Shown one piece after another: positions 465 through 47,185 of a stretch of DNA of 64,000 nt. Position numbers and translations under genes: made by a program. Position 1 is the stretch's first letter. Every line of letters begins with the position of its first letter. Under the pieces are notes generated by a model. It saw only the letters and a list, made by a program, of their open reading frames with translations, made no database searches and was not told the origin of the DNA. Source of the DNA: an uncultured Microthrixaceae bacterium (GTDB lineage: Bacteria > Actinomycetota > Acidimicrobiia > Acidimicrobiales > DATDAH01); assembly GCA_963845425.1 (NCBI GenBank), contig CAWJSC010000002.1:193716-257715 (forward strand), written 5' to 3'.

Positions 465-1965
465 GGCGCGAATCTACGCTGCGGGCGTGCCCCGCCCGTC
501 ACCGCTCGCGCTCACCCTCGACGGCGAGCCCGGTGTCCTGACCGGGCGGTTCGCGCCCGAGGAGCACAAGACCTACCGGGTCCTTCCGGTGCTGGTCCCC
601 GAGGGCACGGCCCGCCTCGAGGTGGGCTACCGCTGGTCGCCCGAGCACGACACCGTCCTCGACCTCGGCCTGTGGGACACCGCCGGGTACCGCAGGGCCG
701 AGGGCTTCCGGGGCTGGTCAGGCAGCCGGGCCGGCCGCGGCCACCAGGGCGAGGCGCCGATCTGGATCGAGGCCGGCGCGGCCGACCGGTGCTACCGGGC
801 CGGGGTCGTCGCCGCCGGTGTCTGGTGGGTCGAGCTCGGCGCCGGCGAGGTCAGCGCCGAGGGCTCGTCCTACGAGGTGACCGTGGCGGCCCGCTCGGTG
901 GCCACCGGCGGCACCACGCCCCCGCCCGACCCCGTCGACCCCGACCACGTGGCCCGGGCCGAGCCCGGTTGGTACCACGCCGACCTGCACCAGCACGGCC
1001 GCCACTCCCACCCCCGGGCGCCCGGGTGGGACGAGCTCGTGGCCCGCTCCCGGGCCGTGGGCCTCGACGTGCTCCCGGTCGTGGACTACGTCGTGCCCTG
1101 GCTGTGGGACGAGCTGGGCCCGGTCCAGCGGGCCAACCCCGACCTCCTGGTGCTCCCCGGACGGGAGGTCATCACCTACTTCGGCCACGCGGTGGTGCTC
1201 GGCGAGACGCCGGGCCTGGTCGAGTACCGCCACGGCTTCGAGGACGTCGACCTGGGCGCGGTCCAGCGGGCCGCGGTCGACGCGGGGGCGCTGTTCCAGG
1301 TCGCCCACCCCACGACGTATCCCGAGGCGGTCTTCGGCAGCCACTGCCGGGGGTGCGAGTTCACCCTCGACGGGTCGATCGACTGGGACCTGGTCACCAG
1401 CATCGAGGTCCTGACCGGCCCGGTCGTGCTGGGCGAGCCGCCCGACTACCCCAACCCGTTCGTCGCCACCGCCCTGGACCGGTGGCGGGCTCTGCTGGCC
1501 GCTGGCCACCGGGTCACGGCGGTCTCGGGCTCCGACGACAAACTGGGCCACGACTTCGGCTCGTCGGCCACGGCCCTGTGGTGCCGGGAGCTGTCCCGGG
1601 CCGGGGTGCGGGAGGCCCTACGGGCCGGCCACGCCTACGTCCGCACCCACGGGGCCCTGGCCAGCCCGGCCCTCGAGGTGCGGGCGGGCGAGGCGATGAT
1701 GGGCGACACGGTCATCGGTCCGGCCGAACTGGAGGTCACCGTCGTCAACGGCCAGGGCCAGGAGCTGCAACTGCTCCGCGACGGGCAGGTCGTCCACGTC
1801 GTCGACCTCCCCACCGAGGAGTTCACCTGGCGCACCGGGATCGCGCCGGACCCGGCCAGCGGACCGTTGGGCACCGCCTGGGAGGTCCAGACCCACGACG
1901 CCCACGCCCCCACCACCGTCGCCAACCCCGTCTTCACCCGCCCCGAGACGCGAACTGGCGCCTGA
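463..1965 (+). CDS. PHP-domain (CehA/McbA-like) metal-dependent phosphoesterase
   Basis: In-frame ATG at 463 inside track ORF 28..1965; the upstream 145 codons are antisense to the SDR gene. His-rich PHP-type motif WYHADLHQHGRHSH, later VSGSDDKLGH. The exact start is uncertain. Confidence 0.7.
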   Translation: MARIYAAGVPRPSPLALTLDGEPGVLTGRFAPEEHKTYRVLPVLVPEGTARLEVGYRWSPEHDTVLDLGLWDTAGYRRAEGFRGWSGSRAGRGHQGEAPIWIEAGAADRCYRAGVVAAGVWWVELGAGEVSAEGSSYEVTVAARSVATGGTTPPPDPVDPDHVARAEPGWYHADLHQHGRHSHPRAPGWDELVARSRAVGLDVLPVVDYVVPWLWDELGPVQRANPDLLVLPGREVITYFGHAVVLGETPGLVEYRHGFEDVDLGAVQRAAVDAGALFQVAHPTTYPEAVFGSHCRGCEFTLDGSIDWDLVTSIEVLTGPVVLGEPPDYPNPFVATALDRWRALLAAGHRVTAVSGSDDKLGHDFGSSATALWCRELSRAGVREALRAGHAYVRTHGALASPALEVRAGEAMMGDTVIGPAELEVTVVNGQGQELQLLRDGQVVHVVDLPTEEFTWRTGIAPDPASGPLGTAWEVQTHDAHAPTTVANPVFTRPETRTGA

Positions 1966-2016: not shown

Positions 2017-4380
<2,364 letters not shown>

Positions 4381-4643
4381 CGTCGTCGAAGTCCTTTCGG
4401 GAGCGGGCCGGGTCCCTCCTGGCCCACAGGGTCCGAGAAGATACCCCGGGAGCCCCGCCCGGACAGAATCCGGGTCGGAGGGGTTGACGCGGGCGCCATT
4501 CGCGGGTGGACTCACTGGCCACACCAGCCCCACGAACCACGGTCCCCTCAGTACCTCCCGCTCGGCGCCGAGAGAGACCCACGGTGCGCGTTCGCGGGAT
4601 TCCTATTACGGTTCCGTTACAAGTCCACCCGGAGACCCACATC

Positions 4644-5825: not shown

Positions 5826-5844
5826 GCGCGCCGGGAAGGGACCG

Positions 5845-7341
5845 ATGACCCTGGTCCCGTCCACCCCCAGCCCTGAAGCTCCGGGGGTGGACGAACGCCA
5901 CGCCGTCGTGGCCGAGACCCACCTCTCGGTGGTGCTGCTGACCGGCGACCGCGCCCTCAAGCTCCCCAAGCCGGTGCGACTGCCCTTCGTCGACCAGTCC
6001 ACCCCCGAACGGCGCGACGCCGCGTGCCGACGGGAGGTCGAGCTGAACCGGCGACTCGCCCCGGACGTCTACCTCGGCGTCCTCGACCTGGTCCGCGATG
6101 GCGTGCCCATCGACCACCTGATCGAGATGCGACGCATGCCCGCGGACCGCCGACTGGCCACGCTGGCCCGGACCCACCATCCCGACGCCGCCGACGAGGT
6201 CCGTCGGGTGGCCCGCCGGCTGGCGGCCTTCCACGCCGATGCCGGGCGGTCGCCCACGATCAGCACCGCCGGGGACCCCGACGCGGTGCGGACGCTCTGG
6301 CAGGACAACCTCGTCGAGATGGCCGCGTTCACGCCGGCGGTGCTCGACGCGGACGCGCTGGCCGAGGTCGGCCGGGAGGCCATGGTCTACCTCGACGGGC
6401 GCGAGGACCTGCTGGAGCGCCGCCGGCGCGACGGCCGGATCGTGGACGGGCACGGCGACCTCCTGGCCGACGACATCTTCTGCCTGCCCGACGGGCCCCG
6501 CATCCTCGACTGCCTGGCCTTCGACGACCGCCTCCGGCACGGCGACGTCCTGCTCGACCTGGCCTTCCTGGCCATGGACCTGGAAGCCCTCGGCCGGGGC
6601 GACCTGGCCCGCTGCCTGGTCGAGGACTACACGGCGTTCAGCGGTGAGCACCATCCGGCGTCTCTGGCGCACCACTACATCGCCTACCGGGCGCTGGTCC
6701 GCGCGAAGGTGGCCTGCCTCAAGGTCGACGCCGACGGCGAGGCCGCAGTGGCCCGAGCCCGGAACCGGCTGGACCTGGCCCGACGGCACCTGGAGCAGGG
6801 TCGGGTTCGAGTCGTCCTGGTCGGCGGGGCGCCCGGGACCGGCAAGACGACCCTGGCCGCCGGCCTCGGGGACCTGACCGGCTGGGCGGTGCTGGACACC
6901 GACGAGCTCCGCAAGGACCTGGCCGGGGTCGGCCACCACCAGTCGGCCGCCGCCTCCTTCGGCCGGGGGATCTACCGGCCCGAGGTGACCCGGGTCGTGT
7001 ACCGGCGCCTGCTCGACCAGGCCGGGCGGCTCCTGCGGGCCGGCGAATCCGTCGTGCTCGACGCGTCGTGGACCTCAGCGGACGACCGCGCCGCAGCCCG
7101 CCGGACGGCCCACGCCAACCACGCCGAGGTCGTCGAGCTCCGGTGCACCGGGTCCCCCTCGTCGATCGCGGCCCGCGTCGACACCCGTTCCCGTCACGGC
7201 GGCGGGCCGAGTGACGCGGGCGTCGAGGTGGCGGCGCGACTGGCGGCCGCGCAGGACCCCTGGCCCGAGGCGGTCACCCTCGACGGTGACCGTGGCATCG
7301 AAGCGACCCTGGCTGCGGCGCGCGCCGCGGCCGGACCCTGA
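5845..7341 (+). CDS. Bifunctional aminoglycoside-phosphotransferase-like / P-loop ATPase protein (Rv2004c-like architecture)
   Basis: 498 aa. The N-terminal half has an APH/choline-kinase-like catalytic loop (DGHGDLLADDIF...FDDRLRHGDVLLDLAFL). The C-terminal half has Walker A (GGAPGTGKTT) and an AAA_33-like kinase fold. Confidence 0.85.
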   Translation: MTLVPSTPSPEAPGVDERHAVVAETHLSVVLLTGDRALKLPKPVRLPFVDQSTPERRDAACRREVELNRRLAPDVYLGVLDLVRDGVPIDHLIEMRRMPADRRLATLARTHHPDAADEVRRVARRLAAFHADAGRSPTISTAGDPDAVRTLWQDNLVEMAAFTPAVLDADALAEVGREAMVYLDGREDLLERRRRDGRIVDGHGDLLADDIFCLPDGPRILDCLAFDDRLRHGDVLLDLAFLAMDLEALGRGDLARCLVEDYTAFSGEHHPASLAHHYIAYRALVRAKVACLKVDADGEAAVARARNRLDLARRHLEQGRVRVVLVGGAPGTGKTTLAAGLGDLTGWAVLDTDELRKDLAGVGHHQSAAASFGRGIYRPEVTRVVYRRLLDQAGRLLRAGESVVLDASWTSADDRAAARRTAHANHAEVVELRCTGSPSSIAARVDTRSRHGGGPSDAGVEVAARLAAAQDPWPEAVTLDGDRGIEATLAAARAAAGP

Positions 7342-7352
7342 GCGCCGCTGAG

Positions 7353-7772
7353 TCAGCCCGAGCGGCGGAGCCGTCGGCCGCTCAGGCGCTCAGGCGTGAC
7401 GGCGATCCAGTGGTCGTGCTCGCCTTGCGCCCACGTCTGCAGGCCCGTGGCCTCGGCCACCTGGGCGACCTCCCGCGCCCCGCGGATCTCATCCGCGGGG
7501 CCCACGGCCACCACGCTCCAGCCCTCCCGGGCGACAGGGTCCAGGTCGTCGATCTCGAAGCTGGCCCGGGTGCCCCAGTCCACCGACTGGAGCTTGGTCC
7601 CGGGCGCGGTGCGGAACACGATGCGGCCGTCGTGCAGGGCGTAGTTCACCGGGAAGATCACCGGCTCGCGGCCGGCGATCACCGCCACCCGACCGACCGA
7701 GCCGGCGGCGAGGAGCTCGAGGCAACGGTCACGGTCCAGGACCTCGATGTGGGTGCGCACGTCTCGGAGCAC
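7353..7772 (-). CDS. Pyridoxamine 5'-phosphate oxidase family (split-barrel flavin/F420-binding) protein
   Basis: 139 aa: LDRDRCLELLAAGSVGRVAV...PVIFPVNYALHDGRIVFRTAPGTKL...ASFEIDDLD...GWSVVAVG, typical of the PPOX-class small proteins. GTG start. Confidence 0.8.
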   Translation of the reverse strand: MLRDVRTHIEVLDRDRCLELLAAGSVGRVAVIAGREPVIFPVNYALHDGRIVFRTAPGTKLQSVDWGTRASFEIDDLDPVAREGWSVVAVGPADEIRGAREVAQVAEATGLQTWAQGEHDHWIAVTPERLSGRRLRRSG

Positions 7773-7808
7773 CCGGTCATCCTCGCCCCGGGAGCGGGAT
7801 CGGGGTCA

Positions 7809-7822
7809 GGGTCGAAGGTCCC
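7809..7822. promoter_or_regulatory. DosR-box-like palindrome (degenerate) in the PNPOx / kinase divergent intergenic region
   Basis: GGGTCG-AA-GGTCCC. It lies 19 bp upstream of the kinase GTG (7841) and 37 bp upstream of the PNPOx start (7772). Confidence 0.4.
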
Positions 7823-7840
7823 CTCGAGTGGGACACGACG

Positions 7841-9286
7841 GTGGTCGTCCCCACTACCGTCGGGTGCCGCGTGACCACCGGTGAGCAGCTCCCGACCGAC
7901 CCGACCGCCTCGGTCGGGCCCGCCTTGGCCGAGACCATCTTCGACCTCGCCCCCGACGCCATCATCGTGGCCACCGTCGACGGGCGGATCACCTCGGCCA
8001 ACCACCGGGCCCGGGAGCTGTTCGGCTACGACGAGTTCACCGACGTCGCCGTCGACGACCTCGTGCCCGCCGGCGCCCGCAACGTGCACGCCTCCCACCG
8101 CGCGGCCTACGGCCGCGAACCCCGGACCCGGTCGATGGGCACGGGCCTCGACCTCAGCGCCGCCCGCCAGGACGGCTCCACGTTCCCGGTCGAGGTGGCC
8201 CTGGCCCCGATCCACCTCGGCGCCGAGGGGACCGGCGTCGTGGCCATCGTCCGCGACGTCACGGAGCGGATCGAGGCCCAGCGCCGGATCAACGAGATCC
8301 AGCAGACCCTCGACGGCACCGAGGAGGGCGTCTACGTCTTCGACGCCGACACCCTGCTGTTCGACTACGTGAACCAGGGCGCCGCCGACCAGCTCGGTCG
8401 TTCCCGGGCGGAGATGGAGGGGATGTCGGTCCTGGACCTCAACCCGACCATGGCCGAGGCGGACTACCGGGCCCTGATCCAGCCCCTGCTGGCCGGCCGC
8501 ATGTCCAGCCGGACCATTGCCACCCGCCACCGCCGCAAGGACGGCTCCGAACTGGAGGTCGAATGCGTCCTGCAGAGCTCGGAGGTCCCCCATCCCGACG
8601 GTCACCGCCGGATCGTCGCCTTCTGCCGGGACGTCACCGTGCGCCTCGAGACCGAGCGCCAGCTGCGGGCCGCCGAGCAGGAGCTGGGCGTGCTCGAGGA
8701 CCGCGAGCGCATCGCCCGCGACCTGCACGACACGGTCATCCAACGCCTGTTCGCCGCCGGGATGACCCTGCAGGCGGCCGCGGTGAAGACCGACGAGGCC
8801 ACCAGCGCCCGGGTGATCGAGGTGGTCGACGAGCTGGACCTGACCATCCGGGAGATCCGTCAGGCCATCTTCCGGCTCACGGTGCACAACCTCGACGCCG
8901 CCAGCGTGCGGCGGCGCGTCGTCGACGTGGTCGACGCGGAGCAGGCGGCCCTCGGGTTCGCGCCGGAGCTGGCCTTCAACGGCCCGCTGGAGACGGTGGG
9001 CGAGGCCGTGGTCGAGCACCTGATCGCCACGCTGCGCGAGGCGCTCTCCAACGCCGCTCGCCACGCTGACGCCCGGACCGTGCGGGTCACCGTGGACGTG
9101 GGTGACGACGTGTGCCTGGTGGTCGACGACGACGGCATCGGCCTCCCCCCGGAGCCCGGGAGCGGTGGCCACGGTCTGGCCAACATGGCCGATCGGGCGG
9201 CGACCATCGGGGGCACCGTGCGGGTGGAGCCCCGCGACCCCAGGGGCACTCGGGTGACCTGGCGGGTCCCGATGTCCCTCCCCTGA
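7841..9286 (+). CDS. PAS-PAS sensor histidine kinase (HisKA_3 / NarL-partner class)
   Basis: 481 aa. Two PAS-like segments (IFDLAPDAIIVATVDGRITSANHRARELFGY...; EEGVYVFDADTLLFDYVNQGAADQLGRSR...). H-box ERIARDLHDTVIQRLFA. HATPase_c N/G boxes (LREALSNAARHA, DDDGIGL, GHGLANMADRA). Confidence 0.9.
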   Translation: MVVPTTVGCRVTTGEQLPTDPTASVGPALAETIFDLAPDAIIVATVDGRITSANHRARELFGYDEFTDVAVDDLVPAGARNVHASHRAAYGREPRTRSMGTGLDLSAARQDGSTFPVEVALAPIHLGAEGTGVVAIVRDVTERIEAQRRINEIQQTLDGTEEGVYVFDADTLLFDYVNQGAADQLGRSRAEMEGMSVLDLNPTMAEADYRALIQPLLAGRMSSRTIATRHRRKDGSELEVECVLQSSEVPHPDGHRRIVAFCRDVTVRLETERQLRAAEQELGVLEDRERIARDLHDTVIQRLFAAGMTLQAAAVKTDEATSARVIEVVDELDLTIREIRQAIFRLTVHNLDAASVRRRVVDVVDAEQAALGFAPELAFNGPLETVGEAVVEHLIATLREALSNAARHADARTVRVTVDVGDDVCLVVDDDGIGLPPEPGSGGHGLANMADRAATIGGTVRVEPRDPRGTRVTWRVPMSLP

Positions 9287-9291
9287 CCGAC

Positions 9292-9948
9292 TCAGGCGTC
9301 GCGGGAGCGGCGCTTTCGTTCGTCCATCCGGGCGGCGAACGCCGCCGCCTCGGTGCGGCGGTCCATGCCGAGCTTCATGAGGATGCTCGACACGTAGTTC
9401 TTGACCGTCTTCTCGGCCAGGAACACCCGCTCGCCGATCTGTCGATTGGTCAGGCCCTCGCCGATGAGGTCGAAGATCTTGCGCTCCTGCTCGGTGAGCA
9501 CACTCAGGGTCTGCTCCTCGGCGGTGCCCATCCGGAGGCGTTCGAGCACCCGCTGGGTCGCCAGGGGGTCGAGCAGGGAGCCGCCGGCGGCCACGGTGCG
9601 GATCGAGGTCACGAGATCGACCTCCCGCACCTCCTTCAGGAGGTAGCCCGCGGCGCCCGCCATGATGGCGTCGAAGAGGGCTTCGTCGTCGCCGAAGGAG
9701 GTCAGCATCAGGCACGCCACCTCAGGGTGCTTGCTGCGCACCTCGCGACAGACCTCGACACCGTCGCCGTCCGGCAGGCGGACGTCGAGCACGGCGACGT
9801 CGGGACGGAGCGCCGAGATGCGCCGGATGCCCTGTTCGGCCGTCCCCGCCTCGCCGACCACCGTGAGGTCGTCCTCGGCCTCGAGCAGGGCCCGCAGGCC
9901 CCGCCGCACCACCTCGTGGTCGTCGAGGAGGAAGACACTGATGCTCAT
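9292..9948 (-). CDS. NarL/LuxR-family response regulator (DevR/DosR-like)
   Basis: Only the last 218 codons of track ORF 9292..11109 look coding. Receiver domain: MSISVFLLDDHEVVRRGL...DVAVLDVRLPDGDG...MLTSF. HTH: LTEQERKIFDLIGEGLTNRQIGERVFLAEKTVKNYVSSILMKLG. It converges on the kinase gene with a 5-bp gap. Confidence 0.9.
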   Translation of the reverse strand: MSISVFLLDDHEVVRRGLRALLEAEDDLTVVGEAGTAEQGIRRISALRPDVAVLDVRLPDGDGVEVCREVRSKHPEVACLMLTSFGDDEALFDAIMAGAAGYLLKEVREVDLVTSIRTVAAGGSLLDPLATQRVLERLRMGTAEEQTLSVLTEQERKIFDLIGEGLTNRQIGERVFLAEKTVKNYVSSILMKLGMDRRTEAAAFAARMDERKRRSRDA

Positions 9949-9992
9949 GACGCCATTCTGCCCGTGCCGGTGGGCGCCGGTCGGGATCAGTC

Positions 9993-10006
9993 GGGACCAA
10001 GGTCCC
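9993..10006. promoter_or_regulatory. DosR-box-like perfect palindrome in the response-regulator / orphan-gene divergent intergenic region
   Basis: GGGACC-AA-GGTCCC has perfect 6-bp arms around an AA centre (context gTCGGGACCAAGGTCCCTGg). It has the same arm/centre geometry as the mycobacterial DevR consensus core GGGACT-WW-AGTCCC. Confidence 0.55.
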
Positions 10007-10041
10007 TGGCCGGTGCGGGCCGATGGGCGCAGGGTGCCTCC

Positions 10042-10650
10042 ATGCGCATCCTTCTGACCGAGAGCGACGTCGGCGGGAGCGAGACCGCCACCCGCACCCT
10101 CGAGGCCGCCGGGCACGAGGTGCTCCGCTGCGTCGAGCCCGGCGCGGCGAGCTTCCCCTGCTCGGGATTGTCCACCGGGGACTGCCCCATCGACGGCCGG
10201 GTGGACGTGGCCGTGACCGTCCGCTCGGAGCCGCACGCCGGCCCGACCGAGCGGGAGACCGGCGTCCTCTGCGCGCTCCGCCACCACGTCCCGGTGGTCG
10301 TCTCCTCGGTAGACGAGGCCGACCCGCTGGCCACCTGGTCCACCGCGACCGTCACCGGTGCCACCACCGACCTCTTGGCCGCGGTCGACGCCGCCGCCCA
10401 CGGCGAGCTGGCCGAGCACGCCCGCGTGGCCGCCGAGGAGGCGAGCCACCAGCTCATCGGCGGCCCGCTGGACGTCGTCGCCCACCGCCGGGCCCGGGGC
10501 GTGGTGGTGACCCTGCGCACCGCCGACGTGCTCGACCCCCGCGGCAAGGAGAACCTCGCGGTCCAGGTGGCCGGCGCCGTCCGCCGCTTCGACGGCGACG
10601 CCGAAGTGATCGACGTCGCCGTCCTCGACGGGCAGCCGGGGAAGGGCTGA
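10042..10650 (+). CDS. Hypothetical protein (202 aa), divergent from the response regulator
   Basis: C-terminal part of track ORF 9112..10650 starting at ATG 10042. Strong GC3 bias typical of the coding frame; competing frames are S/T/R/P junk. The N-terminus MRILLTESDVGG is receiver-like, but no phospho-acceptor signature was seen. No recognisable catalytic motif. Confidence 0.6.
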   Translation: MRILLTESDVGGSETATRTLEAAGHEVLRCVEPGAASFPCSGLSTGDCPIDGRVDVAVTVRSEPHAGPTERETGVLCALRHHVPVVVSSVDEADPLATWSTATVTGATTDLLAAVDAAAHGELAEHARVAAEEASHQLIGGPLDVVAHRRARGVVVTLRTADVLDPRGKENLAVQVAGAVRRFDGDAEVIDVAVLDGQPGKG

Positions 10651-10664
10651 CGGACCAAGGTCCC
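10651..10664. promoter_or_regulatory. DosR-box-like palindrome upstream of the tandem USP gene
   Basis: CGGACC-AA-GGTCCC has one arm mismatch. It lies 59 bp upstream of ATG 10723, directly after the stop of the orphan gene. Confidence 0.5.
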
Positions 10665-10722
10665 GGACGCTGAGGCCCGTCGACCCTTGGCCCGCCCGAC
10701 CCGGACCCGCGAGCATGGGCCC

Positions 10723-11586
10723 ATGCGACGCATCGTGGTGGGTACGGATGAGTCCGAAGGCGCCGGCGGCGCCCTGACCTGGGCGGCGGACGAGGCCGAG
10801 CGCCATGGCGCCGAGCTGGTGGCCGTCCTGGCCTGGGGCTATCTCGACCAACACCGGGCCACACCGGACACCGACTTCGACCGGGAGTACGACGAGACCG
10901 CCGCCGCCGGCGCACTCGACGCCATCGTCGAGCGCGTCCTCGGCCCGGACCGGGCGAGCACCGTGATCCGACGGGCCGTCAACGACCTGGCCCCCCAGGC
11001 CCTCGTCGACGCGGCCGGAGACGCCGACCTCCTCGTCGTCGGCGCGCGCGGCCTCGGAGTGCTGCGCGGCGCTCTCGTCGGCTCGGTCAGCCAGTACTGC
11101 CTCCACCACGCACCCTGCGCCGTCGCCATCGTGCGGGAGACCGACGCCCCGTCCTCACCCCCGCGGGTCGTGGTCGGCGTAGACGGCTCCGAGTCCGCCC
11201 GTCAGGCCCTGGCCTGGGCCCTGGACGAAGGTCGCGCCCGTCAGGCCGAGGTCGAGGTGGTCAACGCCTGGCACCCGCCCTACGTCGGCGCCTACCCCTA
11301 CGACCCCGCCGCATTGGACCTCGACCTGTTCGAGCAGGGGGCCCGGGACCTGGTCGCCGGGGCGCTCGACGGCCAGGACCTCGACGGACTCCCGTCGGCC
11401 CCGAAGGTCACGATCGTGTCCGACACCGCCGCCCAAGCCGTCATCGGGGCGGCCGCCGGGGCCGACCTCGTCGTGATCGGCTCCCGGGGCCGGGGCGGCT
11501 TCATCGGCCTCCTGCTCGGTTCGGTCAGCCAGCAGGTGGCCCACCACGCCCCCTGTCCCGTCGTCGTCGTCCCCGCGGCGACCTGA
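10723..11586 (+). CDS. Tandem universal stress protein (two UspA domains)
   Basis: Starts MRRIVVGTDESEGAGGAL. Two repeats each end in the USP ATP-binding motif (GARGLGVLRGALVGSVSQYCLHHAPCAVAIV; GSRGRGGFIGLLLGSVSQQVAHHAPCPVVVV). Confidence 0.9.
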   Translation: MRRIVVGTDESEGAGGALTWAADEAERHGAELVAVLAWGYLDQHRATPDTDFDREYDETAAAGALDAIVERVLGPDRASTVIRRAVNDLAPQALVDAAGDADLLVVGARGLGVLRGALVGSVSQYCLHHAPCAVAIVRETDAPSSPPRVVVGVDGSESARQALAWALDEGRARQAEVEVVNAWHPPYVGAYPYDPAALDLDLFEQGARDLVAGALDGQDLDGLPSAPKVTIVSDTAAQAVIGAAAGADLVVIGSRGRGGFIGLLLGSVSQQVAHHAPCPVVVVPAAT

Positions 11587-11598
11587 GCCGCCGGTCCC

Positions 11599-12012
11599 AT
11601 GCCCCTCCGCCCCCTCGCCCGAGGTGCCCTCGTCACGGTCAGCCCGTCGAGCACCCTGGCCGAGGTGGCCCGGCTGATGGACACCCGCGGCGTGGACGTG
11701 GCGGTCGTGGCCGAACGGAAGCGCCCCGTCGGGGTGGTGACGACCCACGACATCGTGGTGCGCGGCGTGGCCCACCGCTTCCCCGCCGACGCCCGGATCG
11801 ACACGGTGATGACCGACGAGGTGATCACCCTGCCCAGCGGCGCCGATCGGCGGGAGGCGGCCCACGCCCTCCGCGATCACGGCGTGGCCCACCTGGTGCT
11901 GATGGATGGCGGCGTGCCGGTCGCCGTGCTCACCCGGGAGGACCTCGTCGTCGAGCTGGCCGCCGAGCTGGCCGGGGTCACCAGGACCACCGACCCCCCC
12001 TCACTCGGGTAG
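11599..12012 (+). CDS. CBS domain pair protein
   Basis: 137 aa: LVTVSPSSTLAEVARLMDTRGVDVAVV...VGVVTTHDIVVRG...VMTDEVITLPSGADRREAAHALRDHGVAHLVLMD...VLTREDLV, i.e. two CBS motifs. Confidence 0.85.
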   Translation: MPLRPLARGALVTVSPSSTLAEVARLMDTRGVDVAVVAERKRPVGVVTTHDIVVRGVAHRFPADARIDTVMTDEVITLPSGADRREAAHALRDHGVAHLVLMDGGVPVAVLTREDLVVELAAELAGVTRTTDPPSLG

Positions 12013-12018
12013 CGAACG

Positions 12019-12032
12019 GGGACCTTCGGCCC
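12019..12032. promoter_or_regulatory. DosR-box-like palindrome (degenerate) upstream of the Zn-finger-USP gene
   Basis: GGGACC-TT-CGGCCC. It lies 28 bp upstream of ATG 12060. Confidence 0.4.
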
Positions 12033-12059
12033 TAGGGCGGCGGCGCCGTCGCCCCGAGG

Positions 12060-12986
12060 ATGTCCCGTATGCAGCCGGATGCCATCCACCTCTGCCCGCA
12101 CTGCGAGCTCCGGTATCCCACGGTGGCCGAGTGGCGGGACCACGTCGAGCACGCCCACGCTCCGGTCGACATCCCGCCGCGGCCTTCCACGCCGACCGGC
12201 CGGCTCGTGGTCGCTCTCGACCCGGCCCGGGCCGCAGGATCTGAGGCTGCCGTCGCCGCCGCCGTCGCCCATCAGACCGGCCAGACCCTGGACCTCGTCG
12301 CGGTGGCCGCGCCGGGCCTCGGTCGCGGGCCGGCCGACGCCTTCCTCCGGGCCCGGGTGCACGAGAGCCGCCTCGCCGGGGTCGGCACCATCGCCTGGAG
12401 CGTGCTGGAGGACGGCAAGCCCGCCGACCTCCTGATCGACCACGTGGCCCAGGATCCGGCGACGATCATCTGCCTCGGCACCCGGGCCCGGGGCCCGGTC
12501 CGGGAGCTCCTGCTCGGCAGCGTGAGCGGTGCCGTGCTCCGCCGTACGCCGGTCCCCGTCCTGCTCATCGGGCCGCGCTGTCTCCCCCCGGACACGGGCT
12601 TCCACCGGGTGGTGGCCTGCGTCGACGGGTCCGAGCGGGGTGAGGCGGTCCGCGAGGTCGCCGACCGGCTCGCCCACCTGGCGGGCCTCCGCGCCGATGA
12701 GTTCCGGGCCGCTCGGGCGCCGTGGGTCGAGGACGACGGTGAGCTCCTGGCCCCCGCCCCCAGCCTCGGCGGGGAGGCGGCCGCCGAAGCCGTGCTGGCG
12801 GTCCTCGGGGGTGACCCGGGCACCGTCGCCGTCATGGCCACCGAAGGACGTCGCGGGATGGACCGGCTGCTGTTCGAGAGCGTGGCCCTCGACGTCGTGC
12901 GCGAGGCCCGGGGCCCGGTTCTGGTGCTCCCCCCGAGCCTGGCCGCGACCCATCCGGAACCGCCGCCCTTGGTCACGATCGACTGA
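12060..12986 (+). CDS. C2H2-type zinc-finger / tandem universal stress protein fusion
   Basis: 308 aa. The N-terminus CPHCELRYPTVAEWRDHVEHAH fits C-x2-C-x12-H-x(2/4)-H. Two USP-like halves follow (GTRARGPVRELLLGSVSGAVLRRTPVPVLLI; TEGRRGMDRLLFESVALDVVREARGPVLVL). Confidence 0.8.
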   Translation: MSRMQPDAIHLCPHCELRYPTVAEWRDHVEHAHAPVDIPPRPSTPTGRLVVALDPARAAGSEAAVAAAVAHQTGQTLDLVAVAAPGLGRGPADAFLRARVHESRLAGVGTIAWSVLEDGKPADLLIDHVAQDPATIICLGTRARGPVRELLLGSVSGAVLRRTPVPVLLIGPRCLPPDTGFHRVVACVDGSERGEAVREVADRLAHLAGLRADEFRAARAPWVEDDGELLAPAPSLGGEAAAEAVLAVLGGDPGTVAVMATEGRRGMDRLLFESVALDVVREARGPVLVLPPSLAATHPEPPPLVTID

Positions 12987-13005
12987 GCAGGCCCAGACTG
13001 GGCCC

Positions 13006-14433
13006 GTGGACCTCGACCTGGAACTCGCCATCGCCACGGTCGACCGGATCTGGGACGAAAGTGCTCTGCCCGCCCTCGTCGACTACATCCGGATCCCGGC
13101 CAAGTCCCCGGCCTTCGACGCGGACTGGGCGGCCCACGGCCACCTGGCGGAGGCCGTCGACCTGGTCGCCGGCTGGAGCCGGTCCCGCGACCTGCCCGGG
13201 GCCACCGTCGAGGTCGTCGAGCTGGCCGGGCGCACACCGGTCGTGCTCGTCGAGGTGCCGGCCCACGGGGCCGGCGACCCGAACGACACCGTGCTGTTCT
13301 ACGGCCACCTGGACAAGCAGCCCGAGCTGACCGGGTGGCGGGAGGGGCTCGGCCCCTGGACGCCGGTGCTGGAGGACGACCGGCTCTACGGCCGGGGTGG
13401 GGCCGACGACGGCTACAGCGCCTTCGCCGCCCTGAGCGCCCTCGAGGCGGTGCGGGCCGCGGGGGGCTCCCACAGCCGCTGCCTGGTGCTGATCGAGGCC
13501 AGCGAGGAGAGCGGCAGCCCCGACCTGCCGGCCCATGTCGCCGCGCTGGGCGACCGGCTCGGCGCGGTGAGCCTGGTGATCTGCCTCGACAGCTTCGCCG
13601 GGGACTACGAGACCCTCTGGGTCACGACGTCCCTCCGCGGCCTGGTCGGCCTGGACGTGCGGGTCCGGGTGCTGGAGGAGGGCGTGCACTCCGGCGTGGC
13701 CGGCGGCGCGGTCCCCTCCAGCTTCCGGGTGCTGCGCCAACTGCTGGACCGCATCGAGGACAGCGAGACCGGCGACCTGCTCGTGCCCGAGCTCTACGCC
13801 GAGATCCCCGAGGAGCGGCGGCGGGAGGCTCAGGCCGCCGTGGCTGCGGGCCTCGATCCCCTGGCCGGCCTGCCCTTCGCCGGCAGGACCCGCCCGGAGG
13901 GCGAGGACCCCGTCGAGCTCCTCCTGGCGACCACCTGGTTGCCCGCCATGGCCGTGGTCGGCATCGAGGGCGCTCCCCCGCTCGACGACGCCGGCAACGT
14001 CCTGCGGGCGGAGACCGCGGTCAAGCTCTCCTTCCGCCTCCCGCCGACCGCGGACGCCGACACCGCGTCGGCCGCGCTGCGGCTCCGCCTCACCGAGGAC
14101 CCGCCGTCGGGCGCCGTGATCGAGATCAGCGGGGACGAGTCGGCCACGGGTTGGGCCGCGGCCCCGACCGCCCCCTGGTTGGCCGACGCCCTCGCCGACT
14201 CGGCCGGGGCCACGTTCGGGCACCCGGCGCTCTACACCGGTGTGGGGGGTGCCATCCCCTTCATCAACATGCTCGGGGAGCGTTTCCCCGACGCCCAGTT
14301 CGTGGTCACCGGCGTCCTCGGCCCCGGCTCCAACGCCCACGGCCCCAACGAGTTCCTCGACGTGCCGACCGCCCGCCGCCTCGCCGCCTGCATGGCCCAC
14401 ATCCTCGACGCCCACACCCGCCGTCCCGCGTAG
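13006..14433 (+). CDS. M20 family metallopeptidase (dipeptidase-like)
   Basis: GTG 13006 inside track ORF 12529..14433; upstream codons overlap the previous gene out of frame. Motifs: LFYGHLDKQP, GRGGADDGYS, EASEESGSPDL, and C-terminal GGAIPF...GPGSNAHGPNEF. Confidence 0.85.
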   Translation: MDLDLELAIATVDRIWDESALPALVDYIRIPAKSPAFDADWAAHGHLAEAVDLVAGWSRSRDLPGATVEVVELAGRTPVVLVEVPAHGAGDPNDTVLFYGHLDKQPELTGWREGLGPWTPVLEDDRLYGRGGADDGYSAFAALSALEAVRAAGGSHSRCLVLIEASEESGSPDLPAHVAALGDRLGAVSLVICLDSFAGDYETLWVTTSLRGLVGLDVRVRVLEEGVHSGVAGGAVPSSFRVLRQLLDRIEDSETGDLLVPELYAEIPEERRREAQAAVAAGLDPLAGLPFAGRTRPEGEDPVELLLATTWLPAMAVVGIEGAPPLDDAGNVLRAETAVKLSFRLPPTADADTASAALRLRLTEDPPSGAVIEISGDESATGWAAAPTAPWLADALADSAGATFGHPALYTGVGGAIPFINMLGERFPDAQFVVTGVLGPGSNAHGPNEFLDVPTARRLAACMAHILDAHTRRPA

Positions 14434-14476
14434 GCCCTCGGCCACCGAGACGAGCACTGCGGGTCCAGGGAGCAGA

Positions 14477-14519
14477 CCGTCCGGGCGGGCCGCAGCGCAG
14501 CGAGGACCAGCCCGGACGG
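14477..14519. terminator. Possible terminator hairpin between convergent genes
   Basis: CCGTCCGGGC (14477-14486) and GCCCGGACGG (14510-14519) form a 10-bp perfect inverted repeat with a 23-nt loop, between the stops at 14433 (+) and 14540 (-). Confidence 0.35.
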
Positions 14520-14539
14520 AACCAGCAAGGGGCGCGCCG

Positions 14540-15514
14540 TCAGGCGCCCGTCGCGGTCCCCACCGGCGCAGCCGGTGCGTCGACGTAGAACTGGCTGAAC
14601 CAACGGCGGAACTCGAGGATGGGGGCCTCGCCGGGGGCGAGCTGGGGGCGGGGGACGTAGCGCTTGCGCTCCCAGATGGGGATGTCCTGGACGACCTCCC
14701 GGCTGACCGACGACACGAAGGCCTCCGCCACCCGGGCGGCCCGCTCGTCGTCGGGGTCCTTCAGGTAGAAGTGGAACCAGAGCTGGGTGTGGCCCTCGTC
14801 GATCGGGGTCGACGCCCCCAGCAGGGCAGCGGTGATGGGGCCCTGATAGCGGGTGACGGCGAAGCCGGGGCCGCGCCCGAAGACGTCGATGCGGCCCGGG
14901 CGGGGCTCGCCCGACTTGGACGGGAACTCCTGACGGGAGCGCATGACCCGCTCGTAGCCGTCGAGGCTGACCTCCTCGATGACCCCCGCCTGCGGATGGG
15001 AGTGCACCGCTTCGAAGTGGCCGGCGTCGTAGCCGTTCTCGGCCATCTCCTGCAGGCAGGTGGCCACCTCGTAGGTGTGGGTCGAGTGCAGGGCGTAGGC
15101 CGGGTCCCCGACCTCCTCCACCTCGTACACGTCATAGAGCGGGGCCTGCCCGGGGTCCGGGTGGTACCAGGCGTAGACCAGGCCGTTGGCCTCGGTGATC
15201 GGGAAGGCCCGCAGGCGGGCCTTGGGGTTGGGGCGGTCGGCGTAGGGGATGGCGACGTTGGCGCCGTCCCCGTCCCAGGTCCAGCCGTGGAAGGGGCAGC
15301 GCAGGCAACCGTCGTCGAGGACGCCGTCGCCGAGGTGGGCGCCGAGGTGGGGGCAGTAGGCCTCGTGGCCGTGGAGGGTGCCGTCGCCGTCACGCCAGAG
15401 GACCAGCTCGGTGCCGAAGTAGCGCCGGGTGGCGATCTCCCCCGCCGGGATCTCCGCGGGCTCGGCGACCTTGAACCATCCGTAGGGGACGGGGAACGGA
15501 AAGCGGTCGCTCAT
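14540..15514 (-). CDS. Rieske [2Fe-2S] aromatic-ring/steroid-type oxygenase, alpha subunit (KshA-like)
   Basis: Rieske ligands CPHLGAHL...CPFHGWTW. The C-terminal catalytic domain has ENGYDAGHFEAVH (mononuclear Fe His pair). ATG at 15514 is preferred over the track's TTG at 15523. Confidence 0.85.
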   Translation of the reverse strand: MSDRFPFPVPYGWFKVAEPAEIPAGEIATRRYFGTELVLWRDGDGTLHGHEAYCPHLGAHLGDGVLDDGCLRCPFHGWTWDGDGANVAIPYADRPNPKARLRAFPITEANGLVYAWYHPDPGQAPLYDVYEVEEVGDPAYALHSTHTYEVATCLQEMAENGYDAGHFEAVHSHPQAGVIEEVSLDGYERVMRSRQEFPSKSGEPRPGRIDVFGRGPGFAVTRYQGPITAALLGASTPIDEGHTQLWFHFYLKDPDDERAARVAEAFVSSVSREVVQDIPIWERKRYVPRPQLAPGEAPILEFRRWFSQFYVDAPAAPVGTATGA

Positions 15515-15526
15515 GACGTTCAATCT

Positions 15527-15539
15527 ACTGAGTCTCAGT
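15527..15539. promoter_or_regulatory. Perfect 6-1-6 palindrome just upstream of the Rieske oxygenase start
   Basis: ACTGAG-T-CTCAGT sits in a locally AT-richer spacer between the CBS stop (15565) and the Rieske start (15514). Confidence 0.3.
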
Positions 15540-15564
15540 TCAGTGCCCTGACCGGCGTGCGGAC

Positions 15565-15960
15565 TCAGGCGGCGCGGTGGGCCGACAGCACGTCCCGGAT
15601 CGAGATCACGCCGAGCGAGTGCTCGCCGTCGGAGACCAGGAGATGACGGATCTCGCCGTCCAGCATCCGCTGGGCGGCCTCGCCGATGAGCTCGTGGGGG
15701 TCGATGGCCACCAACTCGAAGGTCATCACGTCCTCGACCCGGTCGTCGTCGACGTCATGGCCGTCGGCCACCGCCCGGACCAGGTCCCGCTCGGACACCA
15801 AGCCGACCGCGGTGTCACTGCTGGTCACCAACGCCACCCCGACCTCTTCGCGCACGAGGACCTCGCTGAGCTCGCGGAGGGTCACGGTCGGGGCCACGGT
15901 GACGGGGCCACGGCGCACCAGGCGGGTGACCGGCTCATCGGGGCGGGCGGTGGACATCAT
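15565..15960 (-). CDS. CBS domain pair protein
   Basis: Last 131 codons of track ORF 15565..17022: MMSTARPDEPVTRLVRRGPVTVAPTVTLRELSEVLVREEVGVALV...GLVSERDLVRAV...VMTFELVAIDPHELIGEAAQRMLDGEIRHLLV...GVISIRDVL. Confidence 0.8.
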   Translation of the reverse strand: MMSTARPDEPVTRLVRRGPVTVAPTVTLRELSEVLVREEVGVALVTSSDTAVGLVSERDLVRAVADGHDVDDDRVEDVMTFELVAIDPHELIGEAAQRMLDGEIRHLLVSDGEHSLGVISIRDVLSAHRAA

Positions 15961-16046
15961 GGCGACTTCCTCTTCTGTCGGTGTGGCCTCATCGTGCTCG
16001 GGGCGCGGCACGTGCCCTAGGGCCGATGGTCCCGACATGCCGCCGT

Positions 16047-17165
16047 TCAGGGGGCGGGATCGAGGAGCTCCTTGAAGCCGTACCGGTGGTGGAGGCCGAA
16101 GGCGAGCTGCTCGAGGACACCGACGCCGACCTGGTCGCCGTGGCGGGCCCGGACGACCTGTTGGATGTGCTGGTTGTCGTAGGCCATCGGGTCGAGGTCC
16201 TCCTCGCGCCAGGACTCGCCGGCGATGGCCAGCTCGCCCTTCCACATGCCGTGGCCCCAGAACGGGTGGGTGTAGCCGATGCCCTTCATGCGGAAGCAGA
16301 TGAGGGGCTCGATGTCGATCTCCAGCCGGGAGCCGTCGTGATCCACGAGGGCCAGCCGGCCCTCCTTCATGCGCCGGGTGCCTGACTCGTAGACCAGCTC
16401 GTGGGTCGCGCCGGGGAGGATCTGCACGTCGGGGTCGACCACCGGCGGGGTCGTCCCGTCGTGGACGGGGACGACCATCGCATCGGTGTGCCACTGGCGG
16501 CCGTCGGGCTCCTCGAAGACGAGGAAGTGGGTACAACGGTCGTCCCAGTGGATCGGGGCCCACAGGAAGAAGATGCCCGTGAAGTTCGGGCTCGGGGCCC
16601 CGGGCGGCGCGGGGTCTCCGACCGGGCGCACGCCCCAGGAACGGTCCTTGGTGCCGGGCGTCGACGCCGCGTCCACCGTCAGGTGCTCGCCGCCGTAGGT
16701 GATCTCGCCGCCCCAGTGGCCGAACTGGGCGAAGCGGGTGGAGTCCAGGACGAGGCGGTCGTCCCGGACGAGGGTCTGGCGCCCCTCCTCCACCGCCGCG
16801 GTCCGGGGGGTGAAGGTGAGGTCGGCGGCGATGCCGGTTTCGTTGTCGTCCAGCACGAGCCGGGTGCGGCCCATGGGCTCCAGGATCTGCAGCTCGAAGG
16901 GCCCGACGGTCAGGTCGGTCGGCTCCAGCGGCATCCGCCGGGACCCGTGGAACGCGTGCTGCTCGCCCCCCCGGATGATGGAGAAGCCGCAGTCCAGGAT
17001 CCCCAGGTTGGGGTAGCGGCACAGGGCGATGCCGAAGTAGAAGTCGCCCTCCCGGTCGTAGCCGTTGAACCAGTACCGGTCGTAGCTGTGGCGGTCGCTG
17101 GTGTTCGGGATGGCCAGCGGCAGGACCGTCTGGTGCACCGGATAGTCGTCGAGCTTCGAGAGCAT
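16047..17165 (-). CDS. Conserved hypothetical protein (372 aa), function unknown
   Basis: Track ORF 16047..17342 trimmed to ATG 17165 (MLSKLDDYPVHQTVLPLA...). Clean coding composition, W/Y/H-rich, predicted soluble. The DRSWGVRP segment is reminiscent of AttH/CrtC-type beta-barrel proteins; this is an impression only. Confidence 0.7.
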   Translation of the reverse strand: MLSKLDDYPVHQTVLPLAIPNTSDRHSYDRYWFNGYDREGDFYFGIALCRYPNLGILDCGFSIIRGGEQHAFHGSRRMPLEPTDLTVGPFELQILEPMGRTRLVLDDNETGIAADLTFTPRTAAVEEGRQTLVRDDRLVLDSTRFAQFGHWGGEITYGGEHLTVDAASTPGTKDRSWGVRPVGDPAPPGAPSPNFTGIFFLWAPIHWDDRCTHFLVFEEPDGRQWHTDAMVVPVHDGTTPPVVDPDVQILPGATHELVYESGTRRMKEGRLALVDHDGSRLEIDIEPLICFRMKGIGYTHPFWGHGMWKGELAIAGESWREEDLDPMAYDNQHIQQVVRARHGDQVGVGVLEQLAFGLHHRYGFKELLDPAP

Positions 17166-17211
17166 GGCCCCATCTTGACCGCCCCGGGCGGCGCCCGGTG
17201 ACGGCGAGCGG

Positions 17212-17538
17212 TCACCCGAAGTGCAACACGACGGTCTGGGCGACGATCTTGCCGTCGCGGACCACGAAGGTGTCGGTGCCCAGGGGGATGCCCTCCGCCT
17301 TCCAGGTGACGAAGGCGATCTCGCCGTCGACGTGCTCGACACCGAACTCGACGTCCGGCATCTTCCCGGCGCTCATGGCGAAGACGCCCCGGATGGCCTC
17401 GAGGCCCTTCGCGACCCCGCCCAGGTTGCTGATGAAGACGGAGTCCTCGGTGTAGTCCTCCATGATCCCGTCCACGTCGCCGGCCTCGAGCGTCGCGTTG
17501 TGGTGGTCGAGAACGGCCTTGGTCTCGTCGGTGGGCAT
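17212..17538 (-). CDS. SnoaL/NTF2-like fold protein
   Basis: 108 aa, AGGAGA RBS upstream. Sequence: LDHHNATLEAGDVDGIMEDYTEDSVFISNLGGVAKGLEAIRGVF...FVVRDGKIVAQTVVLHF, typical of SnoaL-like small proteins. Confidence 0.8.
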   Translation of the reverse strand: MPTDETKAVLDHHNATLEAGDVDGIMEDYTEDSVFISNLGGVAKGLEAIRGVFAMSAGKMPDVEFGVEHVDGEIAFVTWKAEGIPLGTDTFVVRDGKIVAQTVVLHFG

Positions 17539-42023: not shown

Positions 42024-42158
42024 GGGTCCCGGCCTACTCGCGGCCAACGGGCGTCGTCCACCCGTTCGGGCCTCGGCACGGCTGCACGGTGACTGTGACG
42101 CCCGGTGGGCCCGAATGGTTCGGTGAACCTTGGCCGCCGCTTCGGCGTCTCACCGGGC

Positions 42159-44483: not shown

Positions 44484-44516
44484 ACCACCCCACCACCCAC
44501 CGACCAGGAGCCCACC

Positions 44517-47115: not shown

Positions 47116-47185
47116 CCCCGGCCGACGGCCAGAAGCACCCTGCAGGCCGACGACGGTGTACGGGGCCCGGACGGACAGTGGAGCC

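Follow-up and report, generated by a model that had tools for sequence, protein, structure and literature searches.

A DevR/DosR-type stress regulon island with a GAF-less PAS-PAS sensor kinase predicted in an uncultured Microthrixaceae bacterium

We analyzed a 64,000-nucleotide stretch of DNA (hereafter the window; GenBank assembly GCA_963845425.1, contig CAWJSC010000002.1, positions 193,716 to 257,715) from an uncultured Microthrixaceae bacterium of the Acidimicrobiia, and focused on eight adjacent genes, named G1 to G8, at positions 5838 to 12986. A preliminary description of this DNA had proposed that they form an island of the DevR/DosR (dormancy) type, with an atypical PAS kinase devoid of GAF domains, in a non-mycobacterial high-GC host. 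Gene content, DosR-like boxes and the transmitter of the kinase support this proposal. We consider it very probable that the island is a DevR-controlled regulon, and the best explanation of the locus as a whole, to which we give a probability of roughly 0.6, is a DevR/DosR-type stress regulon island with a haem-PAS kinase.

Genes were called by GC content at third codon positions (GC3) and then checked with Pfam; the window has approximately 73% GC. All eight genes were recovered in the order, orientation and domain composition proposed before. G1 (plus strand; open reading frame (ORF) 5845-7341, likelier 5887..7341) encodes a protein with a P-loop AAA_33 C-terminal domain, and G2 (7353..7772, minus strand) a flavin-binding protein of the PNPOx fold (Pyridox_ox_2 or FDOR type; Pfam E 1.5e-26). 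They are followed by G3 (7841..9286, plus strand, likely start GTG 7871), a cytoplasmic PAS-PAS-HisKA_3-HATPase_c sensor kinase, and G4 (9292..9948, minus strand), a DevR/DosR-like NarL-family response regulator. The two genes converge as had been described, with a 5-bp gap between the stop codons TGA of G3 (9284-9286) and TCA, as read on the plus strand, of G4 (9292-9294). The remaining four genes are on the plus strand: G5 (10042..10650) encodes a 202-aa protein of a four-cysteine family, G6 (10687..11586, likely start ATG 10723) a tandem universal stress protein (USP) of the Rv2623 type (Pfam Usp E 2.2e-57), G7 (11599..12012) a stand-alone CBS pair (two Pfam CBS stretches), and G8 (12060..12986) a two-domain USP. 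The last had been listed as another USP, and Pfam Usp matched two stretches of it (E 6.3e-20), as in a tandem protein. The proposed core of the island was likewise confirmed and its end point was not, since a second stand-alone CBS pair gene, CBS2 (131 aa, 15565..15960, minus strand; Pfam CBS E 7.7e-19), lies beyond it together with its own box.

For comparison, we retrieved two relatives by looking up contigs that encode close relatives of the kinase: L081, a collinear locus with a kinase 80% identical to G3, and L082, with a kinase 59% identical. Another 80 related loci came from a kinase-profile search of genome contigs, among the matches listed, where the best kinase was 45% identical.

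The regulator G4 contains the domains Response_reg (E 2.1e-25) and GerE (E 1.2e-15). In a search against Protein Data Bank (PDB) sequences, M. tuberculosis DevR (3c3w) scored 242 bits, and VraR, NarL and the M. tuberculosis NarL receiver followed with 148, 120 and 63 bits. The NarL-type, DevR-like assignment made previously thus holds, and DevR, compared with unrelated NarL-family members by bit scores and not by a tree, is the best solved relative by a wide margin. The identity between G4 and DevR is 54.6% over 207 aa and 60.6% in the DNA-binding domain, and the DNA-recognition stretch FLAEKTVKNYVS, which spans DevR Lys179, Lys182 and Asn183, is the same in both proteins. The equivalents of DevR Asp54, Thr82 and Lys104 are aligned in G4 in the stretches 'AVLDVRLPDG', 'L(M/I)LTS' and 'GY(L/V)(L/V)K', respectively. 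The residue roles in DevR are those known from the DosR-DNA structure, and a role of Lys182 is said to have been described by Gupta and co-workers in 2011 (cited in PMC13486717). The orthologues of G4 in L081 and L082 are 95% and 79% identical to it, and the other NarL-type regulator of the window, our internal control, is 37% identical. OsdR of Streptomyces coelicolor, an experimentally validated orthologue, is 61% identical to DevR (PMC5069765). Judged from these comparisons of sequence, G4 is a DevR-like regulator.

We searched the 64-kb window for the palindrome GGGAC-N4-GTCCC with at most one mismatch. Six of the nine sites were located within 5838-16033, and all six fell in non-coding gaps. 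Box 1 (GGGACCGATGACCC, one mismatch, 5838..5851) is upstream of G1, box 2 (GGGTCGAAGGTCCC, 7809..7822) is in the gap between the divergent G2 and G3, and box 3 (GGGACCAAGGTCCC, 9993..10006), a perfect palindrome, is in the gap between the divergent G4 and G5. Box 4 (CGGACCAAGGTCCC, 10651..10664) and box 5 (GGGACCTTCGGCCC, 12019..12032) are upstream of G6 and G8, and box 6 (GGGCCGATGGTCCC, 16020..16033) lies 66.5 bp upstream of CBS2. Only 4.9% of the annotated 13 kb (4.5-17.5 kb) is non-coding, and the P for six out of six boxes falling there is ~1e-8; the coding DNA of the same 13 kb contains only two-mismatch background sites.

All six boxes are conserved in L081 at the same positions, with equivalents of boxes 1, 2, 4 and 5 at 7937, 9941, 12778 and 14156 and an identical box 6 at 18051. 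The collinearity with L081 extends across the island and both flanks, so this comparison mainly shows the conservation of the boxes. Boxes of this kind also stand before homologous genes in L001, L043, L082 and L084, including perfect ones upstream of the kinase gene in L043 and of the G5 homolog in L084. Across 74 loci, a box occurred near the kinase start 6 times versus 1.9 expected (P 0.013). The box motif is intermediate between the Dev box of M. tuberculosis and the OsdR consensus of Streptomyces, AGGGCCGATCGGCCCT, and we regard the boxes as predicted DosR-like operators of the GGGACC-N2-GGTCCC type.

The position of the boxes relative to the start codons was then considered. ATG 5845 of the window corresponds to ACG in L081, whose G1 orthologue begins at the counterpart of GTG 5887, and GTG 5887 appears the more likely start of G1. 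For G3, GTG 7871 is the likely start, with which the disorder of residues 1-20 in the AlphaFold2 (AF2) model is consistent. With these starts, the distance from the box center to the start codon is 42.5 bp for G1, 43.5 bp for G2 and 42.5 bp for G5, and 51.5 bp and 65.5 bp for G4 and G6 (ATG 10723), respectively. Elements at -12 to -7 read GAAGCT before G1 and GAGGAT before G2; A at -11 and T at -7 are found before G1, G2, G4, G5 and G6, and likewise in the L081 orthologues of G1, G2 and G5. The pattern ANNNT, which has a background frequency of 0.016, is present at five of the eight starts (P 6e-8). In the DosR transcription-activation complex, the hspX box is 'centered around -43.5' (PMC13486717); G1, G2 and G5 match this geometry only if their start codons are the transcription starts. 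We infer from these patterns that the mRNAs may be leaderless, with an activator box near -43. Scans of the window with sigma-70 promoter and intrinsic terminator consensus sequences found none, as expected for DNA of 73% GC, and Rfam and tRNA scans of the window returned nothing.

The sensor kinase G3 consists of PAS-1 (approximately residues 30-145), PAS-2 (approximately 158-268), HisKA_3 with His296, and HATPase_c. Pfam detected two PAS domains and no GAF domain in G3, in agreement with the preliminary description, and GAF is also absent from its 114 full-length homologs. The closest PDB sequences for residues 357-479 were 8sbm, DevS (3zxo, 68.8 bits) and DosT (3zxq, 62.9 bits), and GAF-GAF kinases beside DevR-like regulators have transmitters with 43-53% identity to that of G3. 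The G3 homologs all keep His296 of the H-box as well as the N and G boxes. Because the tandem GAF domains are missing, we did not file G3 in the DevS/DosT family; it combines a DevS-type transmitter with a different sensor.

The closest PDB sequence to PAS-1 was FG214 (10jx, 67 bits), followed by the FixL haem-PAS structures (E ~1e-11) and, weakly, DosP. In the HMMER alignment, G3 His83 corresponds to FG214 His156 and FixL His200/His194, His86 to FG214 His159, Met99 to Met172, and Gly102 to His175. All 114 full-length homologs have His83, Arg97 and Gly100, and 113 of them have Met99; the spacing of His83 and Met99 is the same as that of FG214 His156 and Met172. A His/Met pair, His77/Met95, is also known from DosP. 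Met95 of DosP is named as a haem-distal residue in the reference list of the preprint on FG214, which describes FG214 as a haem-binding PAS regulator with a helix-turn-helix (HTH) domain, with His156 as the proximal ligand and, as the distal ligand, Met172 in the reduced and His175 in the ferric state (bioRxiv 10.64898/2026.03.15.711900). A check of the PAS domains for haem ligands had been suggested with the original proposal; in PAS-1, the proximal His and an aligned Met99 are present, and the equivalents of FixL Arg220 and FG214 His175 are not. From this pattern, PAS-1 probably binds haem. By analogy with reduced FG214 and E. coli DosP, our reading is that this would be a haem b coordinated by His and Met. 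We are less confident that the signal would be specifically O2, nitric oxide (NO) or carbon monoxide (CO).

The AF2 model of G3 has a pLDDT of 90. In a fold search, its tandem PAS part superposed on the FixL PAS pair with a TM score of ~0.7, and it also resembled DosP, MmoS and NifL. PAS-2 is well conserved (His230, Arg231, Asp234, Gly235), and no informative solved relative of it was found in the PDB. An iron-sulfur (Fe-S) PAS of the NreB kind was considered for G3 and rejected, as PAS-1 has no conserved cysteines.

A search for homologs of the PAS-PAS kinase gave 5,947 matches at E<=1e-20. Nearly all of the best 120 are PAS-PAS-HisKA_3 proteins of full length; most come from metagenomes of Acidimicrobiia or other Actinomycetota, and a few are labelled 'DevS' by the Joint Genome Institute (JGI). 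A DevR-like regulator (>=55% identity) lies no more than 10 kb from the kinase in 49 of the 80 loci listed: in 20 the regulator gene is convergent directly after the kinase gene, in 7 adjacent on the same strand, and in 6 divergent. PNPOx genes are found in 30 of the 80 loci, tandem USP genes in 30, and a G1-like protein gene in 6. The convergent layout is therefore the commonest in these lineages, unlike the operons of M. tuberculosis and S. coelicolor; the wiring singled out in the preliminary description is real, and it is no peculiarity of this locus.

The expectation that the neighborhood would be conserved was borne out, as its content is kept in L081 and L082 and recurs around related kinases. 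L082, with other flanks, has a G1-like protein, three PNPOx genes, several USP genes, a convergent kinase/regulator pair, and a G5 homolog. Two box regions were noted in L082 (2640-5488 and 18184-20803). A perfect box lies between an arginine-deiminase operon (arginine deiminase, ornithine carbamoyltransferase, and carbamate kinase) and an amino-acid permease gene, and a further box separates a G5-homolog/PNPOx pair from a WS/DGAT (wax ester synthase/diacylglycerol acyltransferase, tgs1-like) gene facing away. This suggests that the L082 regulon includes anaerobic ATP supply and triacylglycerol storage.

The sensors of these loci vary. In a Pfam scan of ten of the kinases, transmitters of the same kind were joined to GAF-GAF, to a single GAF or to one detected PAS domain, and all but the kinases of L043 and L023 were within 10 kb of a DevR-like regulator. 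Short single-GAF DevS-type kinases (~370-400 aa) stand beside DevR-like regulators at L083:5772-6983, L084:1320-2426, L031 and L046; the L083 and L084 regulators are 68-72% identical to G4, and the single GAF represents a third sensor architecture on the same transmitter. Two sensor types, a PAS-PAS kinase (L003) and a DevS-type kinase with GAF-GAF (L043), are encoded in a single Acidimicrobiia metagenome-assembled genome (MAG; CAWJCQ01). The neighborhood of L043 contains a G1-like gene, PNPOx and USP genes, and its pairing with L003 recalls the dual sensors DevS and DosT.

The closest known counterpart of the island is the dormancy regulon of M. tuberculosis. Its DevR is, like G4, a NarL-type regulator with the same recognition stretch (55% identity), and the two systems share the GGGAC...GTCCC palindromic box and, for G1, G2 and G5, the geometry of about -43, provided that transcription begins at their start codons. 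The DevS/DosT kinases provide the closest transmitter to G3, and tandem USPs of the Rv2623 type are common to both, as are, by architecture or fold, CBS-pair and FDOR/PNPOx proteins. The systems differ in sensor, gene order and host lineage: DevS/DosT sense through GAF-GAF with haem in GAF-A, whereas G3 has PAS-PAS, and the M. tuberculosis genes form the operon Rv3134c-devR-devS, whereas the kinase and regulator genes of the island are convergent. The genes hspX, acg, narK2 and nrdZ and a nitroreductase gene were not found in the window. Outside mycobacteria, OsdR/OsdK of S. coelicolor (SCO0204/SCO0203) includes a DevR orthologue with a box, clustered USP genes and autoregulation, and thus indicates that a DevR orthologue with USP synteny works beyond the mycobacteria (PMC5069765). 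The island resembles it in its DevR-type regulator, related box and USP synteny. It differs in the kinase and the gene order, as OsdK is 41-42% identical to DevS/DosT, keeps most oxygen-sensing residues, and is encoded in an osdR-osdK operon (PMC5069765).

As for the sensor, PAS-1 aligns with the haem PAS of FixL from the rhizobial FixL/FixJ system, with the proximal His kept and an FG loop of equal length. FixL Arg220, Arg206 and His214 are replaced in G3 by Leu, Ala (Arg in most homologs) and Arg, respectively; the haem-like PAS is the first of two in G3 and the second in FixL; and G3 has a HisKA_3 transmitter of the DevS/NarX class and a DevR-like partner, not FixJ. FG214 shares with PAS-1 the motif VH..HRAAY..PR.R.MG. 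The output of G3, a histidine kinase, differs from both the LuxR-type HTH of FG214 and the cyclic di-GMP phosphodiesterase of DosP. NreB/NreC of staphylococci and bacilli, whose cytoplasmic PAS senses oxygen with a cysteine-ligated Fe-S cluster, is the nearest oxygen sensor that, like G3/G4, joins a cytoplasmic PAS and a HisKA_3 kinase with a NarL-family regulator. NreB binds its cluster through cysteines, whereas G3 PAS-1 has the conserved His/Met pair and no conserved cysteines.

G5 had been called an orphan, which did not hold: it belongs to an unannotated family, without a credible Pfam match, of which a profile search run exhaustively recovered 946 cluster representatives (E<=0.001), 336 of them at E<=1e-30. 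The same search overturned the 26-member orphan family returned by a word-indexed search. The members are nearly all ~200 aa long. Of 150 representatives with a median identity to G5 of 35%, all 150 keep cysteines C30, C40, C48 and C77, spaced C-x9-C-x7-C-x28-C. In the AF2 model (pLDDT 89), compared by Foldseek, the N-terminal domain is receiver- or flavodoxin-like and has no canonical acidic pocket, and the C-terminal domain is small alpha/beta.

The gene of the G5 family is divergent from or directly downstream of the regulator gene in the window, L081, L083, L084 and the P0340 contig, and adjoins PNPOx or USP genes in L082 and the P0154 and P0300 contigs. DosR-like boxes are present upstream of the homologs in L082 (at 43.5 bp) and L084 (perfect). 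All informative genomic contexts tie the family to DevR-like regulators, PNPOx or USP genes. We put G5 forward as a candidate accessory protein under DevR control, probably with a metal or Fe-S centre.

Of the other island products, G1 is 498 aa long when read from ATG 5845, and its AAA_33 domain (E 2.7e-21) has the Walker A motif GAPGTGKT. It had been described as an APH (aminoglycoside phosphotransferase)-like P-loop protein, and the P-loop part was recovered. Pfam gave no APH match to the N-terminal domain of G1 even at E<5, nor was there a PDB sequence match. The name 'aminoglycoside phosphotransferase family enzyme/predicted kinase' is given to many homologs with 53-59% identity, which carry both PF01636 (APH) and PF13671 (AAA_33). 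We apply the APH-like label because the homologs carry APH and the motif HGDLxxxD is conserved in G1; its N-terminal domain would then be kinase-like, of the APH type. Rv2004c, to which G1 had been likened in architecture, is a putative counterpart.

The best PDB match of G2 was 6eci, an FMN (flavin mononucleotide)-binding PNPOx-related protein. FDOR/PNPOx members of the mycobacterial dormancy regulon include Rv0080 and Fsq (PMC13284343). G6 matched 3cis and 2jax best (E 3e-28), the latter deposited as TB31.7, and has two ATP-binding G-x2-G-x9-G-S motifs. Both structures are, we assume, of Rv2623. The canonical ATP-binding motif G-x2-G-x9-G-[ST] was not found in G8. G7 starts 12 bp after G6 and is probably co-transcribed with it. 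It had been described as hrp1-like, and its architecture and size agree with this; the sequence match to Rv2626c (1xkf/1y5h) is weak (E 0.005, 20 bits) and ranked approximately 21st among CBS proteins. CBS2 has an orthologue in L081 at 17596-17991.

The island is flanked upstream by H+-pyrophosphatase and VanY-type peptidase genes, and downstream by M20 peptidase, Rieske/KshA-like oxygenase and CBS2 genes. The M20 peptidase gene (13024-14433, plus strand) begins 37 bp after G8, and the Rieske/KshA-like gene (14540-15523, minus strand) is 41 bp downstream of CBS2. Both are without a box of their own and absent from L082, and both may be co-transcribed with regulon genes. A 431-aa gene (16047-17342, minus strand) with a strong coding signal and no Pfam match ends 13 bp before box 6 and is kept in L081 as a 372-aa gene. 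Upstream, a gene for a 645-aa protein (28-1965, plus strand) also combines a strong coding signal with no Pfam match.

The H+-pyrophosphatase (PPase) gene (2017-4533, minus strand) had been left out of the island by the preliminary description, rightly, as it has no box; both it and the VanY gene were rejected as regulon members on this ground. Its slot is shared with L081 (4383-6491), where the protein is only 44% identical and the neighbors 80-88%. The motif reads GNTTKAV in the window and GNTTAAV in L081, and this Lys/Ala position presumably separates K+-independent from K+-dependent enzymes. It looks as if the enzyme was replaced in place by another PPase subfamily.

Several signaling and stress genes lie elsewhere in the window. 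A single-domain USP gene (37898-38353, plus strand) was rejected as a regulon member, as it has no upstream box at <=2 mismatches; the sole site nearby has 3 mismatches and overlaps the start codon. The regulon does not include all USPs of the genome. Stress signaling of the partner-switching type is represented by a 701-aa PAS-GAF-GAF-SpoIIE (PP2C) phosphatase (33395-35500, plus strand), and no DosR-like box was seen near it. A second NarL-type two-component system (45238-47081, plus strand), unrelated to the island, is co-operonic, with a HisKA_3 kinase containing DUF7134 and a regulator, and is followed by an ABC-transporter ATPase gene at 47156-47962. A short ORF with sigma-70 region 2 (similar to extracytoplasmic function (ECF) sigma factors; 41685-42047, minus strand) and a DJ-1/PfpI-AraC regulator beside a DJ-1/PfpI protein (43524-45155, plus strand; stress-related) are also outside the island.

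Taking into account the sensor, the regulator and the boxes, we propose the following mechanism. Soluble G3 would hold a b-type haem in PAS-1, with His83 as the proximal and Met99 as the distal ligand in the resting state. O2, NO, CO or a redox change would shift the haem coordination, and the shift would be relayed through PAS-2 and a coiled coil to the DevS-type HisKA_3 transmitter (His296), whereupon G3 would phosphorylate G4 on Asp55. The phosphorylated G4 dimer would bind the six GGGACC-N2-GGTCCC-type boxes and activate five or more transcription units, most of them leaderless: G1; G2 and the divergent G3; G4 and the divergent G5; G6-G7; G8, perhaps with the M20 peptidase gene; and CBS2, perhaps with the Rieske gene. 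Activation would extend to the genes of the kinase and the regulator themselves, as positive autoregulation. The products would be nucleotide- and flavin-'holding' proteins of the dormancy type, namely ATP-binding USPs, CBS pairs, a PNPOx/FDOR binder and a kinase-like/P-loop protein, with G5 added as a receiver-like four-cysteine protein with a probable metal or Fe-S centre.

Several observations speak against this explanation. The nine box sites of the window compare with 15.3 expected from shuffles, a count not above chance; box number is therefore uninformative, and the argument rests on placement and conservation. The case for leaderless transcription depends on start codons that, for G1 and G6, were picked by homology. 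NCBIfam gave no DevR- or DevS-specific assignment, its best matches, MadR and MadS, being below the cut-off and unused. The AF2 model of G3 cannot display a cofactor. The position of the distal FixL Arg220 is Leu in G3 (and in 92 of 114 homologs) and that of the distal FG214 His175 is Gly, so ligand discrimination cannot work as in FixL or FG214. Distant PAS-PAS kinases at L003, L005, L006, L007 and L009 have no DevR-like regulator within 10 kb, so the pairing of kinase and regulator is not universal. Chance could in principle have brought stress genes and palindromes together without any common regulon, given that actinomycetes commonly carry genes of the USP, CBS and PAS types and that GC-rich palindromes often occur in DNA of 73% GC; the confinement of all six boxes to the small non-coding fraction, their conservation in L081, the regular box-start spacing, and the same gene content around DevR-like regulators in other genomes make this extremely improbable.

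Other explanations keep the regulon and change its input or its meaning. PAS-1 might contain no haem and might bind a flavin, as in NifL and MmoS, or a metabolite, or might act as a dimerisation or relay module, so that the kinase would sense redox, energy or another cue. The fold matches of the whole model to NifL and MmoS, both FAD (flavin adenine dinucleotide)-binding tandem-PAS sensors, would suit this, as would the loss of both known distal residues and the conserved PAS-2, which could be the real sensor. Yet the significant PAS-1 relatives recovered by sequence from the PDB are haem PAS domains only, with no flavin-PAS among them, and the near-invariant His83 and Met99 keep the FG214 spacing; we judge a haem-free PAS-1 unlikely. 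It is also conceivable, though we lean clearly away from it, that the island serves general stress or development, like the OsdR regulon, and not hypoxia/NO/CO dormancy, so that 'DosR-type' would describe ancestry. S. coelicolor OsdR controls development and stress genes with its signal unconfirmed (PMC5069765), and the window has none of the classical hypoxia effectors (hspX, nitroreductase, narK2, nrdZ), but the G3 sensor resembles haem-based O2/redox sensors, the L082 boxes precede the arginine-deiminase operon and the G5-homolog/PNPOx pair opposite the tgs1-like gene, and the USP, CBS and FDOR content fits hypoxia regulons. Finally, G3 may not be the cognate, or not the sole, kinase of G4, which a GAF-type DevS encoded elsewhere would drive. 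The MAG with both kinase types, the PAS-PAS kinases without an adjacent regulator, the M. tuberculosis precedent of two kinases for one regulator, and the convergence of G3 and G4, which are hence not co-transcribed, all make room for this. The tight convergent pairing, seen in L081, in L082 and at 20 of 49 loci, the DevS/DosT-like transmitter of G3, and the box before the kinase gene here and in related loci, which points to one circuit, render it quite unlikely, and an additional kinase would not exclude G3.

Taken together, these data favor a DevR/DosR-type regulon driven by a haem-PAS kinase. DevR-type regulons outside mycobacteria are already known from OsdRK (PMC5069765); the predicted haem-PAS-type sensor on a DevS transmitter, the convergent wiring, the putative leaderless promoters with a box at -43, and the four-cysteine family are uncharacterised, and our literature search found no paper characterising a haem-PAS kinase with a DevS-type transmitter. 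A broader proposal, which we put forward tentatively and think more doubtful than not, is that of a large, uncharacterised clade of DevS-type kinases centered on the Acidimicrobiia, in which a His/Met PAS-haem sensor has been swapped in and the G5 family is a new DevR-associated component. If true, this would be a natural exchange of sensor modules, PAS-haem for GAF-haem, on a conserved DevS-DevR core, and G5 could be a pseudo-receiver with a bound metal or Fe-S centre that gives a second redox/NO input or modulates phosphotransfer between kinase and DevR.

DevR/DosR is the main model of bacterial dormancy signaling and has been studied almost only with the GAF-haem kinases of mycobacteria and Streptomyces OsdK. 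The predicted box positions and leaderless promoters of this island can be tested directly. The locus, along with thousands of metagenomic kinases, suggests that elsewhere in actinomycetes the same regulator, box and stress set are driven by a FixL/FG214-like haem-PAS. The coupling of different haem sensor folds to a single transmitter could be studied here as a natural experiment.

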